Shown: positions 24,312 to 47,700 of the stretch, piece after piece
Numbering within the stretch: position 1 is the stretch's first letter
Layout of the letters: each line of letters begins with the position of its first letter
Source: Eledone cirrhosa
Taxonomy: Eukaryota
DNA: 64,000 nucleotides
Reading direction: 5' to 3'
Assembly (NCBI GenBank): GCA_964016885.1
Contig: OZ024742.1
Coordinates: forward strand, 140,120,001 to 140,184,000
Translations under genes and position numbers: made by a program
Notes under the pieces: generated by a model
Database searches by the model: none
Told to the model about the DNA's origin: nothing
Seen by the model: the letters and a program-made list of their open reading frames with translations, nothing else

Positions 24312-24524
24312 ACAATATTAAATAAATGGAAACTATATTTATAAAACCATATTTATTTCATTATATATATTTCAGGGATGACATATAATGAAATAAATAT
24401 GGTTTTATAAATATAGTTTCCATTTATTTAATATTGTAAATATATCCAAATATTTGTCGAGTGCTTTTATATCAGTTATAAATATTTACTAGTTGTAACC
24501 CAACAATTTAAATATAACTTTCCA
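24312..24524. mobile_element. Fold-back of the 3' terminus of the PLE family seen at 44763-48005
   Basis: 24312-~24370 is the inverse of ~24382-24438. The sequence matches 44763-44920. Confidence 0.8.
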
Positions 24525-25931
24525 TATATATATTATATATATATTTATATATATATATATATATATATTATATATATATTTATATATATATATATATTAT
24601 ATATATATTTATATATATAAATATATATTTATATATATATATATATTATATATATATTTATATAAATATATATAAATATATATTTATATATATATATATA
24701 TTATATATATATTTATATATAAATATATATTTATATATAAATATATATTTATATATATATATATATTATATATATATTTATATATAAATATATATTTATA
24801 TATATTTATATATAAATATATATTTATATATATTATATATATATAAATATATATTTATATATATATATATTTATATATAAATATCTATTTATATATAAAT
24901 ATATATTTATATATATTATATATATATAAATATATATTTATATATATTATATATATATAAATATATATTTATATATATTATATATATATAAATATATATT
25001 TATATATATATTATATATATAAATATATATTTATATATATATATATATATATTATATATATATTTATATATATAAATATATATTTATATATATATATATA
25101 TATATATATATTATATATATATTTATATATATAAATATATATTTATATATATATATATATATATATAAATATATATTTATATATATATATATATATAAAT
25201 ATATATTTATATATATATATATTATATATATATTTATATATATATATATAAATATATATTTATATATATATATATTTATATATATATATATATAAATATA
25301 TATTTATATATATATATACATATATATTTATATATTTATATATATATATAATATATATATTTATATATATATATATATATATATTATATATATATATATA
25401 TATATATATTATATATATATTTATATATATTATATATATATTTATATATATTATATATATATTTATATATATAATATATATATTTATATATTTATATATA
25501 TATATTTATATATATAATATATATATTTATATATTTATATATATATTTATATATATATTATATATATATTATATATATATTTATATATATATATTATATA
25601 TATATTTATATATCTATATAAATATATATTTATATATTTATATATATTTATATATTTATATATATATATTATATATATATTTATATATCTATATAAATAT
25701 ATATATATATATTTATATATATATTTATATATATATTATATATTTATATATATATATAAATATATATTTATATCTATATAAATATATATATATATATTTA
25801 TATATATATTTATATATATATTATATATTTATATATATATATAAATATATATTTATATATATATATTTATATATATATATATTTATGTATATATATATTT
25901 ATATATATATATTTATATATATATATTTATA

Positions 25932-26192
25932 TATTAAGAGAGTAAAACAAAGAAGCCTTCAATACATCAAGTCTTTATTAGCCGACAATGTTTCGTCCTA
26001 TTAAGGACTCATCAGGGCAATTAAAACAACAAGAAGTAATATCGGCAGATACAAGCCGGAAGCTCCGAAGAATATGGAGTGTACATACACTAAAGTATTG
26101 CAAAAATATATAATAAAAATAATAAAAATATATAATAAAAATTACTAAGAATGTATATAACATTAAGAACCATATTACAAATATAGTCCATA
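25932..26192 (-). mobile_element. ~260-bp non-coding HHR-bearing unit (PLE pLTR/retrozyme-like), left copy
   Basis: Inverse of 27484-27745 with a few substitutions. Flanked by TA on both sides. Confidence 0.8.
25981..26018 (-). ncRNA. Minimal type I hammerhead ribozyme
   Basis: Reverse complement GCC CTGATGA GTCCT taat AGGAC GAAA C att G TC GGC, GUC triplet. Confidence 0.9.
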
Positions 26193-42909: not shown

Positions 42910-44435
42910 ATGTGATAATAACACAAGGAGACAACAACAACAACACACACATTCAATGCCTCTCACCACCACCACAATCTTAATAAACACACAGACACAG
43001 AAAACAGGTAATGACAGTAGCACAGAAATAAGGGAAGGTAATAGGATTGAAAGGAGAAGGGAGACTATGGACAAAGAAAATAACCAAGACGAACACACAG
43101 ACACACAAAATAGAGTAGATAATAACAATGAACCAGAGGAAAGAGACAGGAGTAATAATGAGAGACATAGACACAACCATGAGGCTGTTGGTGGAAATAG
43201 AAACAACACAACTAACAATAACAATAGCACACATAAAGCAGCAGCCTGGAACTCTACTTTTTATAATCCCTCCCATAAGTCGTTCGACCTGCGATGAGTC
43301 CACACCACGACTTTACCTTTTAACAAACGCACGCAATTGCCGTCACAGGTCGATGAACAAACAGAAGCACAATTTAGTATAGCTAGATCTAAACTTAGAA
43401 ATATTATAGAACAGTATAGCAAGAAGCATAATGGAATGGAGGCCCAGCAACTGGGAGAAAAATCTGCAAATGGCTTGCGTAAGCTCATGCAGCGCTCACG
43501 TAATGGAGAGATAGCATGCTTTCCAACAGACAAGTCTGGCAGAATGTCGGTTGACAGTCTGCCAAACTACATCCAGGCAATGCAACCCCACATCACTAAC
43601 ACAAGAGAAGTAACACCACAAGAGCATGAGGATAGAGAAAAAGCCCTCAATGCCCATATGGTGATGTGGACGAATATAATGCAGCCCAACAAAAGGACTG
43701 CCAACAACTTCCAGGCCTGGAACAATGACGTGCCAGCGTTGTATGGGCTTCAAAAAGACCATAAAACGGGCAGTAACCCTGTCACGGGACCACCAACACG
43801 GCCAGTCTGTGGAGCTAACATTGCTAGTAACTACAGACTGTCCTACTTCCTCTCCCTGATCATATGCCCCATCATTGAAATGTCCCCAGATGTATGTGAC
43901 AGCACGGAGGACCTCCTCAGCAGAATCGGCAAGAGTAACCGATCTAGGGACCTAACAAATTGCATAATAGGTAGTATGGATGTTGTGTCCCTGTATCCAT
44001 CTATTGACGTGGATTTTGCTGTGGAGAAATGCGTAGAAATGATCAGTGAGAGCAATGTTGAGTTCCGTGGGATTGATACCAGTGAGCTGGGACTCCTACT
44101 TAAACTTACCTATAGTAATAATTACCTAGACGCATATGACCGTAGCAACCTGTGCCCTACAAGACCAGCAAGAGGCAGACCACCTACCATTACCTCAATG
44201 GCCAAGAAAACCGACACAGATAGATGGAACGGGTGGACCAGAGCCATACGGACACTCGAAAACCACGATGAACTAAAGAAAATGATTGCACATGCGGTGG
44301 AGGCCAGCATAAAACTAACCCTTAAGGAACATGTGTTCAAATTTAATGGAAAAACATATGCCCAAGAGGAAGGAGCAGCCATTGGTGTTAGCATTGCAGG
44401 CGACATAGCTAACTTATTCATGGTATGGTGGGACA
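42910..44435 (+). pseudogene. PLE of a different clade: N-terminal and RT region, truncated before motif C
   Basis: ORF 43337..44503 reads PTDKSG..PALYGLQKDHK..PTRPV..DSTEDLL..SMDVVSLYPSI..FKFNGKTYAQEEGAAIG..IANLFM. No YxDD follows. Confidence 0.88.
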
Positions 44436-44762
44436 GTAGACGTAATTACGGTATGTGCGCATTTCTCCTAAGTTTAATTTTACAACTAATTGTGTATGGT
44501 TGATGGTATATTTAGTCAGTTTCTACATGCTGTCGAAATGTTGGATAAATACTCGACTGAGGCCGCCGCGAAGAGGCTAAGCTCGGTTATTTGTCGGAGA
44601 TTTCCCCATAAGAGCATTTATTCTTATAGCTTGTTCTGATTGATTTTTTATATGGTTAATTATGCTAATTAGAAGAAGAAATAGTATATATTTTATTATC
44701 TGATGATTCTAAAGACATGATTTATGATATAAATATATATATATATTTATATATAAATATAT

Positions 44763-47700
44763 ATGCAAAGGTTTTATTTAAAATTGTTGGGTTACAACAA
44801 GTAAATATTTTATAACTGATATAAAGCACTCGACAAGTTTTTGGAGTATATATACGATATTAAACAAATGGAAACTATATTTATAAAACCATATTTATTT
44901 CATTATACATATTTCAGGGATACCATATTAAAAATATGGCATGCCTTCGTCAGATAAAATACAATATATAAAGTTTTATAAATAATTTTGACGTGCCATA
45001 TTATAAGCGACCATTAAATTAAGAAGCTGTCTGGGTAGTGATTTGTTTATACTTATTTAGTTATAGTGTTAAGCACAGTTAGAAAAAAGATGGAGAGAAA
45101 GAAGAAACGGAGGTAAAGAAAAAACAGAGAAATAGAGGGGAGAGAAAGAAAGGAGGAGGTGAAAAGGAACAAGGAAGAAATAAGAGAGGCAAACGAAAGC
45201 AACAGATAAATAATAATTCACCATACATATAGAAAAACTCAAGAGAGAGGGAGTACTATATATAGAGAGAAGGATAATAATTATTTAGTTATAGTGTTAA
45301 GCACAGTTAGAAAAAAGACAGAAAGAAAAAACTGGAGATAAAGAAAAAGAAAAAACGGAGAGAGAGAGGGGGGAGGAAAGGAAGAGAGAGAGAGAAAATA
45401 TAAATATATAGGAGGAAGTGAAAGAGAAACAAGAGAGAAATAGGAGAGGCAAACGAAAGCGATAGATACATAATAATTCATCATACACAAAGACAAACTC
45501 AAGAGAGAGGAGAAAGTGCTATATAGAGAGAGAAGGATATAGTTACATCTTTACGTCATGTCATATCAATTTGAATTATCAATTCATATGAAATGGATAA
45601 TAAGAATGCAAATATCGATATTCATGAATGAGACATAGATATATAGTATGAGAAAATAACATTGTTCAATAATGACCATATGTTTAGTTTAAAACTCTGA
45701 GGTCAATATGCCAAAATCTGAGATAAAACCTTCAAAAAATTACCCTATCTATAAAAATACGGAAATATATATGTATATGTACTTTCTGAAAAAAAGAGAA
45801 AAAATAGAAAATTATGTCTAACTCTAGTCAATAATATAGACATACACATGACTTCACCTGATCAACCTTATAATTTCTTGTGTTATAAAAATTTCACTGT
45901 ATATATACATAAATATATGATTAATATTCATGTTCTCACATATATGATTACCGTTTATGTATTTAATATTATGCATATCTGTAACATATACAAAACCATA
46001 CCTATATATATATATATATATGTATATATAAAATCTGTGTGAGTTTACAAGCATCTCTACGCACATATACAGACACATGAACACATAAAATAAACTCTAT
46101 AAACCTTCTATATGCATGTTAATACACATATGGCCTTTGTATAGAGATAATCAAATATCAATATATCAGCACAGAAATATCAAAACATTAAAATACTTTC
46201 AACACATTATAGAGTATCTCAGGCCCAAAACAATATGCTTCATATATTTACTACAGAAATGTACCCTTCCCATATTTTCAAACAATATATTGCAAAGTTA
46301 GTTATAAGCTATCAGAGTCAAATAACAAATAAAAACCAAAAATTATTTAACAAAAATTATTTAAAAGATTTAGAAGACCCAGTGATTCTACGGATGCCCT
46401 TATATTTAGTATAGAAATTTATCTTGCGTAAAATTTATTTAATACATTGGGAGCATATCCACTTTAGAGTAGTTTATTACATCTTTGTTTATATTTAGAA
46501 AGAAGGTTTAAAAAGAAAAAGGTGAAGGAATCAAATGATTTATCGTCAGGTTTCATATATTAACTAAATTTCTTAATTAATTATACTACATTTTAAATTT
46601 ATATTTATATTTAAACGTTGAGTTCAATCTATGTCTGCAGCAACTGAATAAATTGCTCCTTAAATTAAGGGAATTTTTGGACTTTAATATAAAGAATACC
46701 TTCTCCACACAGAGATCACATGTCTCTGATGAGGAATTAAAGGGAATTTCCTTTGAGACAATATTCCAAAACATTGAATACTCAACATTATCTCGTTTAA
46801 GTTGCCAGAGTAGGCTTGATAGCGAAGTTGAGGATTTTTTGTTTGGATCTGTGAAAGAATTCTTATGATTATTGAAGCGAAGTTTAAATTCTGTCGAGGT
46901 TGAACCAACATAGTTGAAAGAATTTAAGTTAGTTTTAACATTACAATTGTATACTACATTTTTAACTAAGCAATTGTTATTTAACGGACAGTTAGATTTA
47001 TTTCTACAGTTTCAGTTATTTAATTGAATATTGTTTGGGTTATTATTGGTATTTTGGTTAGGTTTTAAATTCCTATTATTAATTCTGTTAATATTTTGTG
47101 CTAAATTTTTGGTGGACGAGTAAGTTAATTTTATAGTATGTCTATTAAAAATTGAGTGATATTTATGTGTTCTAGGGAAGCGTTTGTCAAGAGCATTAAA
47201 GAATAGTTTAGCAATATGGGTTTTAATATTTAGTGAAAAAAGGGGGGAGGGGCAAACCATATTATATTTCTAGTTCTATTTCTTTTTCGGCTTTTGGAAT
47301 TATTGTAATGTTTTCTATTATAGTTGTTAATGTTGCTACCGTAATTAAAATTGTTATTATTTTGGTTAGTTTGCTTATTATTATCGATGTACTTAATTTT
47401 ATCACTATATCCTGCTCTAGCTAACGCTTCATTGTAATACTGTGCTTTTTCATCAAAAATATTTTTATTAGATGAAATTCTTGAAATTCGTTCTTGAACA
47501 GAGTTCACTATAGTATTTTTAACAGATCTGGGGTGATTAGAGTTAAAATTGACATAATTCAAGTTCTCATTTAGTTTGTGAAATGGATAGTGAAGACATG
47601 TGTTGAGATTTAGTGTTACATCCAGGAAATTGACTATTCTATGGTTATTCTCTATTTCTATTTTTAGATTAAGGTAATTAAAAAATTGTATAATTTGTTT

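Follow-up and report, generated by a model that had tools for sequence, protein, structure and literature searches.

We analysed a 64,000-nucleotide (nt) stretch of the 3.0-Gb genome of Eledone cirrhosa (assembly GCA_964016885.1, contig OZ024742.1, positions 140,120,001 to 140,184,000, forward strand; hereafter the window, with positions counted from its first letter), in which several Penelope-like pieces are interspersed with long (TA)n arrays. Two families of Penelope-like elements (PLEs), here called A and B, were studied with regard to the places at which their copies end on the 3′ side. Two recurrent ends, one internal and one distal, were found in family A, and both lie about 7-9 nt 5′ of a copy of a duplicated bulged hairpin, RCUCC..GAGYGCU, that is also present in family B, the element at 38279.

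Two Penelope-like families and their 3′ ends

The family A copy at 44763..48006 (-) is a tailed single arm flanked by TA arrays on both sides. It carries broken coding pieces for the reverse transcriptase (RT) thumb and the GIY-YIG domain, a long 3′ untranslated region (UTR), a pseudo-long terminal repeat (pLTR) and a tail. Its type I hammerhead core (44904..44953, -; CUGACGA..GAAA with a palindromic stem III; fold z -2.29) has a predicted cut at 44904|44903, 49 nt ahead of the G at 44855 that marks the internal end; the initial annotation had put this end at about 50 nt past the cleavage site, in good agreement. Stem III of this hammerhead contains a TA patch that is almost unused. An 8-nt spacer (44847..44854, -; TATATATA in this copy), a likely primer-alignment patch, separates the internal G from hairpin 1 (44825..44847, -; ACTCC..GTC GAGTGCT), a bulged stem-loop recognised by motif and fold. 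The distal end lies 84 nt beyond TATATATA, close to the distance of about 85 nt given earlier, and approximately 92 nt beyond the internal G.

Two recurrent 3′ endpoints had been proposed for family A, and this proposal held: all six ends named for the window were located at, or at most 3 nt from, the places given, and both endpoints recur genome-wide. Distal ends were found at 24519-24526 (+; TTTCCATA) and at 28938->28931 (-) and 44769->44762 (-; both TTTGCATA). At the internal ends the element can be followed with certainty up to the G of TTTAATATYG, which lies at 24313 (-), 31046 (+) and 33450 (+). Four of these six ends pair up, as was not noted previously, into two head-to-head insertions (24313/24525 and 28932/31046), and each insertion consists of one tailed and one tail-less arm. 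In the first, the tail-less arm (24313..24384, -; inner boundary approximate) ends at the internal site with the junction 24313|24312 into (TA)n, and its tailed partner (24385..24525, +) has the internal G at 24436, the spacer TAAATATA, a hairpin 1 lacking one base and a distal end at about 24525. In the second, a tailed stub (28932..29033, -; spacer TATATCTA, hairpin 1 at 29015->28994), which stops approximately 10 nt 5′ of its internal G (29023), is joined by a long tail-less arm (29049..31046, +; junction 31046|31047) with 77% identity to the 44763 copy (29049-31054 versus 46861-44847). For the remaining tail-less arm (33188..33450, +; hammerhead core 33352-33401, 5′ boundary approximate) no partner arm was identified.

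The family B insertion 38277/42657 is laid out in the same way. Its tailed arm (38277..40273, -) comprises a hammerhead core (38466->38412), the internal site 38367|38366, the spacer TATGTATA, hairpin 1 (38359->38332) and the distal end at 38277, and the tail-less arm (40274..42657, +) has its hammerhead core at 42558-42612 and carries the 3′ part of the ORF (open reading frame; frame 40242-41300) with the CxCX5C linker and a GIY-YIG-like end. The left arm had been described as about 90 nt longer than the right, which is the case, as it reaches 38277. That the right arm stops at the internal site was likewise correct, but its endpoint is 42657-42660 rather than 42655, because a template TT was copied. 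The statement that this element is unrelated to the 44763 family does not apply to the end site, since the hairpin motif and the Hydra-type protein motifs are common to both. Identity between the two family B arms is 99.4% over 1.7 kb (38567-40273 versus 40536-42243), and a 219-bp tandem duplication in the 3′ UTR (42020-42457) is confined to the right arm. Hairpin 2 is absent from all copies in the window and was present only in read-through copies elsewhere (L020, L029, L105, L117, L192 and L209).

Protein motif marks, the hammerhead and insertion into (TA)n assign both families to the Hydra clade of PLEs. The ORF motifs are RIRWR, KSDKT, YRDD, the CxCX5C linker, a GIY-YIG-like end, and the late CxxC and CxH. 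At loci L105 and L064 a single ORF combines an RT core containing YRDD with a C-terminal GIY-YIG domain (IVY..YVG and IIY..YVG ends); L064 has lost the first linker cysteine, and L105 contains RIRWR and KSDKT, corresponding to the Hydra marks of an RWK-like motif and of DKT replacing DKG. The cysteine motifs read CNCRDRSKC, CDLC and CKH in family A, and CNCRIKNKC, CNLC and CLH in family B. Protein searches gave 265 homologs at E≤1e-10, the best named relatives being from the cephalopod Argonauta hians (35-42% identity). Across 80 long homologs, RW[KR] was found in 68, DKT in 75 and DKG in 3, and the CxCX5C linker, the late CxxC and CxH in 56, 78 and 77, respectively. No CCHH was seen by eye in the endonuclease (EN) core, and the Neptune-clade pattern (CX2-5CxxC linker plus CCHH) was absent from both element proteins and present in 8 of the 80 homologs. 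Pfam returned no RT family match on five ORFs and, on the window piece at 46586-47011, a weak GIY-YIG match (E 0.0035, below the curated cut-off), and a search of solved structures with one element protein returned no match. Also found were pLTRs with a type I hammerhead motif, inverted or tandem arms and an optional tail; the cores were located by motif and fold, as Rfam at E≤1 left those of families A and B unscored and matched only Poseidon-type hammerheads at 25977-26021 and 27655-27699. Insertion into (TA)n holds for both families, with a few non-TA flanks (L214, L285). Because of its long 3′ UTR the family A monomer measures 4,008 nt, whereas Hydra-clade elements are under 3 kb; as this length is said to hold "generally" (Craig et al. 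2021, PMC8557442; published work is cited here and below from passages of the respective papers), we do not read the approximately 4.0-kb monomer as excluded from the clade.

A duplicated hairpin and the TA patches beside it

The 30-mer directly preceding the internal end has 12,096 exact matches in the genome; an exact 42-mer from the window copy occurs at 2 genome places only. Ends were sampled at the first 100 matches of the 30-mer and, up to 52.4 Mb of contig C1, at the places anchored by a hammerhead. Among 92 hammerhead-anchored family A arms, 47 ended internally (one of them left unclassified by the script and assigned by eye), 42 ended distally, 3 read through, and none ended elsewhere. 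Since the 30-mer recurs 12,096 times and all 92 arms fall into only three classes, the two ends are not a matter of chance, and the 3′ endpoints of this sample are discrete rather than uniformly spread.

In read-through copies of both families the distal end is itself internal, and is followed by a second motif, RCTCC..G-NN-GAGYGCT, and then by ATG. If the primer always ends in TA, distal copying would start 7-10 nt before hairpin 2 in family A as well as in family B. Of 66 family A arms that are tailed or read through, 65 have 8 nt between the internal G and CTCC of hairpin 1, though the sequence of this spacer varies; its length is mostly 8-9 nt in a further group of copies, here named ATCATTG.

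The hairpin was also found in metagenomic relatives. The best 80 of 486 matches yielded 78 loci, 55 of them with enough upstream DNA, and in the interval between hammerhead and ORF 31 had two hairpins, 15 one and 9 none; in the control searches the motif was found in 2/55 (ORF interior) and 7/55 (opposite strand). The stem covaries. With pairs counted by an anchored pattern, one position reads C-G in 66 and T-A in 26 sequences, so that 92/94 are paired against a shuffle maximum of 80, and the inner pairs are formed in 68/94 and 63/94 (shuffle maximum 53). The outer pair and the bulge were filter criteria and were therefore not counted as evidence. T-G and G-T pairs in the stem favour the sense strand. 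Ahead of 97 distinct metagenomic hairpins the TA dinucleotide peaks at positions -9, -8 and -7 (26, 24 and 41 of 97, compared with 2-13 at -42 to -10), and an in-phase TA run of at least three units stands just before the hairpin in 69/97 (three upstream windows, 19-31/97; shuffles, 38 on average and 49 at most). Where the same contig contains a second copy, departure from the element was seen by eye at 3-9 nt before a hairpin in 14 cases, some of them onto non-TA flanks; the others read through, reached the contig end or had mismatched anchors. On one metagenome contig (L328) the end of a Hydra relative, ahead of hairpin 1, lies in a (TTTA)n array, and the patch of this relative is ATATTTT; patch and target have possibly changed together.

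The initial annotation had further claimed that the ends sit in (TA)n and relate to TA patches, and that the nicked target sets the start by annealing to such patches in the RNA. Discrete ends and the TA run before the hairpin agree with the first part; the counts do not agree with annealing as what sets the start. The perfect TA patch ATATATATA in hammerhead stem III of an old subfamily ends 21 copies, 20 of them true ends, versus 8,377 read-throughs. Further copies of the used 8-mer, TAAATATA, lie at -29 and +73 in the same subfamily, and none of the sampled arms end at these two positions. Nor is the internal TATATA conserved as a site: among the 66 tailed or read-through family A arms the patch reads TAAATATA in 40, TATATCTA in 12, TAAACCTA in 9, TATATATA in only 2 and other variants in 3. 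Whatever the variant, tail-less arms end at the same G (G|TA), and the end base is identical in subfamilies whose internal patch is TAAATATA, TAAACCTA or AATATTTA. Genome counts for the TAAATATA subfamily gave 4,601 junctions of the form G|TATATATATA versus 43 (<1%) of the better-paired GTAAATATATA.

In the ATCATTG group (6,308 matches, 30 examined) the spacer begins with A in 8/10 tailed arms and 16/20 tail-less arms continue G|T, so that the junction base is mismatched; a minor register, GAATATATA, accounts for 237 of the 6,308 and is shifted toward better pairing. The family B distal end likewise shows a minor register toward better pairing in 9/33. At its internal site 32/35 tail-less arms retain the template TT, which puts the start of copying past the first TATA patch, at 5-8 nt from the hairpin on its 5′ side. 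In one case (L214) the tail-less arm joins (TCA)n at this position. Overall, patch use did not scale with complementarity and the best-paired register was not dominant, contrary to what is expected of a sole selector. Annealing alone as the selector of the site is thus not supported and is largely refuted. The sequences suggest instead that short pairing next to the hairpin probably helps initiation, and that the alignment patch is probably under selection, yet works only beside the hairpin.

One end of each kind per insertion

Head-to-head insertions nearly always combine the two ends. In family A, 47/47 pairs had one tailed and one tail-less arm (44 called by script, two three-unit inserts by their outer ends and one divergent pair by eye). 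In family B, where 30 loci and 20 regions chosen as pairs out of 6,320 matches gave 31 pairs, 30 had one arm of each kind (29 called by script, one reclassified by eye) and one was tailed on both. Independent choice of the site by each arm would produce such distributions with binomial probabilities of 1e-14 and 3e-8, respectively, and annealing cannot explain why an insertion divides the two sites between its arms. Inserts at the youngest loci, selected by their tails, were asymmetric in 20 cases and tailed on both sides in 2, as judged by eye. In 38 pairs the longer 5′ reach belonged to the tail-less arm in 14, to the tailed arm in 13 and to neither in 11, and the centres of 28/38 abut or overlap by 0-6 nt. 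Abutting or overlapping centres and a longer arm of either kind fit two complementary DNAs (cDNAs) primed off opposite target strands and joined by microhomology, and the one-of-each rule suggests that twin priming is programmed. In 22/30 asymmetric family B pairs and 24/44 family A pairs it is the left arm, on the minus strand, that carries the tail, possibly by chance.

We consider it reasonably probable that these elements insert by hairpin-anchored twin priming, in which the ends fall 7-9 nt before either hairpin because the hairpin places the protein, while the TA patch assists docking. The order of signals on the RNA would be pLTR, hammerhead, site 1, hairpin 1, tail, site 2, hairpin 2 and ORF. 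The GIY-YIG domain would nick both (TA)n strands and leave ..TA-3′OH; junctions begin with T where the phase is readable. The element protein likely binds each hairpin, the nicked (TA)n strand likely docks on the short UA patch that immediately precedes the hairpin, and one cDNA is likely started per target strand, at site 1 and at site 2. Two RT units would start there, possibly as a dimer, a step for which we draw solely on a prediction for the PAc protein discussed below. Pairing over 1-8 nt would aid loading and, in a minority of cases, move the register by 1-4 nt, without picking the site. The two cDNAs would then stop early or run off the 5′ end of the RNA and join by short microhomology, which would give the inverted structure with a one-sided tail. 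More tentatively, and with somewhat less than even confidence, we propose a telomerase-like cassette of two sites, in which tandem bulged hairpins with their UA patches load two RT units on one RNA and the top and bottom nicks are primed together, one per site. These elements would in that case normally insert by programmed twin priming, to which inverted pLTRs and the one-sided tail would be directly due.

Arms of both types have their 5′ ends clustered 169-196 nt ahead of site 1, where family A has a TCACT motif (around 45040, -, in the window), and near -166 in family B; TATA-like boxes lie upstream. This suggests a common transcript start reached by run-off, predicted for the TCACT motif at about 187 nt before site 1. 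Run-off at the hammerhead cut was rejected, since only 1/164 arms has its 5′ end near the predicted cut (-52 to -45) and cleaved linear templates have thus left no genomic trace. An accumulation of tailed arms stopping just past the internal site (5/85 between -15 and -5) is a hint only. RT-made TA tails as an obligatory step were rejected in view of the non-TA flanks at L214, L339, L370 and L373, and fold-back of a tailed cDNA in view of the 14/38 pairs in which the tail-less arm reaches further 5′.

Several observations weigh against hairpin-anchored twin priming. The distance to the hairpin is not strictly fixed: the ATCATTG group has values of 8, 9 and, in one case, 11 nt, and the metagenomic relatives an apparent 3-9 nt, blurred by shared TA letters. 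Isolated tails fold no better than shuffled sequences (z -0.61 and -1.21; -1.81 for the stretch with two hairpins), and the lowest-energy fold of family B is without the full hairpin. The sequences behind the covariation and TA counts are related to each other, and the shuffles therefore overstate significance. Pairs with two tails do occur (L002/L011, L001 and the family B pair), and for numerous arms no partner was detected. The sequences of the two arms usually overlap, for which a single RNA would need strand displacement, or else two RNAs would be used; and long tailed arms would call for an RNA with hairpin 2 behind a 3′ pLTR, as a tandem or a circle, which is hypothetical here. Hammerhead-made circles have been reported for related retrozymes (PMC7229834). 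The in vitro start site of PAc is not homologous to the cut DNA, and pairing is thus not general to PLEs (PMC11167929). Finally, the evidence as a whole is read from genomic junctions.

Among the alternatives, annealing of nicked (TA)n to UA-rich RNA patches as the only determinant appears very unlikely. It would account for the enrichment of TA runs just before the hairpin (69/97), for the 8/8 pairing of the used site in young family A (in family B with one G.T wobble), for minor registers that gain pairing, and for the few copies truly ending at the hammerhead patch. It fails to account for better or identical patches that are nearly unused, for the unchanged end of the TAAACCTA and AATATTTA subfamilies, for the scarcity of the best-paired register, for a family B distal site that matches over at most 2 nt (one read-through copy), and for the one-of-each rule. 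Were the hairpin to set both starts without any pairing, with the TA likeness reflecting AT-rich sequence or nuclease recognition, the tolerated terminal mismatch of the ATCATTG group, the non-TA flanks at the same site (L214, L339, L370, L373) and the start of PAc without homology (PMC11167929) would all follow; the TA enrichment at -9 to -7 is position-specific and above base composition, however, and registers shift toward pairing, so that we regard this structure-only initiation as unlikely though still a live rival.

The other live rival, resolution at the DNA level, we rate as rather unlikely. Both cDNAs would start distally, or one strand would be copied back, and an endonuclease would cut one arm internally, as suggested for PLE tails (PMC8557442). 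One tail per insertion would follow naturally, the rare inserts with two tails would be uncut, and Penelope EN required tail DNA for cleavage, as cited in PMC11167929. Against this, a second hairpin at an equal distance from the distal end argues for a single mechanism at both ends, the T-G and G-T pairs favour the sense strand, simple fold-back fails in 14/38 pairs, and PAc RT starts coincide with both tail ends in vitro (PMC11167929). Loss of the tail after insertion, by deletion from the internal TATATA to the neighbouring (TA)n, was rejected as extremely improbable. One internal deletion from the hammerhead TA patch was indeed seen (L176), but deletion via the shared ATATA would leave GTAAATATATA, which occurs 43 times versus 4,601, none of the 78 pairs is tail-less on both arms, and copies 97-99% identical are already asymmetric.

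Related systems and neighbouring elements

The two ends described here are the optional Penelope tail, about 90 nt long in these Hydra-clade elements; that PLE tails are optional and often present at one end only is known (PMC8557442, PMC3846280). With the Hydra clade as described (PMC8557442) our families share RW[KR], DKT, CxCX5C, the late CxxC and CxH, the hammerhead, (TA)n insertion, an inverted 5′-truncated arm and a tail often at one end only; the twin hairpin with its alignment patch is unmentioned in the passages of that paper. The Penelope elements of Adineta (PMC3846280) resemble them in head-to-head arms with a tail on one arm (optional and 31 bp long there), in central palindromes, and in TATA and TCACT initiator-like motifs of the pLTR, but self-priming on an antisense template was proposed for them, whereas both outer ends join target TA here and either arm may be the longer.

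Most closely comparable is PAc, the Poseidon protein of Anolis carolinensis and the only in vitro system, which extends both strands from two internal starts bounding the tail (Frangieh et al. 2024, PMC11167929). Both systems have two internal starts downstream of a hammerhead around an optional tail, an AT-rich target and extension of both strands, and PAc, too, apparently uses uncleaved RNA. They differ in that the PAc tail spans 30-40 nt within the ORF, compared with about 90 nt in the 5′ UTR before the ATG here; that PAc starts in an AC-rich stem-loop without target homology, unlike the separate hairpin copy and TA patch at each start here; and that a strict rule of one site per arm is not reported in the passages of PMC11167929. 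What fixes the two PAc starts is not identified there, and the origin of PLE tails and head-to-head pLTRs is named as open in PMC8557442. The candidate cis signal in our families is a covarying hairpin of 25-30 nt that is present twice, and among thousands of copies natural variants already allow the effect of position (hairpin) to be told apart from that of pairing (TA patch).

The tail, its one-sidedness, internal initiation and the two-endpoint pattern were thus known already, and a counted test separating position from pairing is added here. In LINE-1 twin priming both target strands prime cDNA and an inversion results, with the second primer annealing at variable places and the two parts not overlapping; in our families, by contrast, both sites are fixed and the arms overlap. 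Telomerase aligns its DNA primer on a short RNA patch next to a protein-bound RNA element. Its repeat addition has no counterpart shown here. Our findings bear on the way in which a DNA primer is brought into register with an internal RNA template in telomerase's sister group. A twin hairpin, a TA alignment patch and a strict rule of one site per arm in PLEs were found neither in the literature searched, which did not extend to subscription papers or to the supplements of PMC8557442, nor in the passages of bioRxiv 10.64898/2026.07.22.740005.

Other elements lie around families A and B. The two arms of a third, Poseidon-type hammerhead family (25932-26190 and 27487-27746) stand head to head on either side of a 1.3-kb TA array and share the end point CTCTTAA|TATA, approximately 52 nt after the predicted cut; no Hydra hairpin was found in them. 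A near-perfect 550-bp fold-back at 31980-32530, which gave rise to spurious microRNA matches, belongs to a different family inserted in TA, relatives of which lie at 23230-23340 and 32713-32860. The TA-flanked element at 35880-36570 has a 150-bp direct repeat at its ends (35879-36028 and 36419-36568, 97%) and resembles a pLTR-like partial tandem. A 401-codon open frame at 43298-44503 (+), with RT-like motifs by eye and no Pfam match, adjoins the 44763 copy. Repeated pieces resembling long interspersed elements, with RVT_1 and a C-terminal PHD finger, were found at 9504-10279, 13193-13578 and 16794-17589, beside tRNA-derived repeats resembling short interspersed elements. At many loci (e.g. L054, L102, L133 and L255) one Hydra family has inserted into TA tracts beside the ends of another, giving nested clusters like that of the window.

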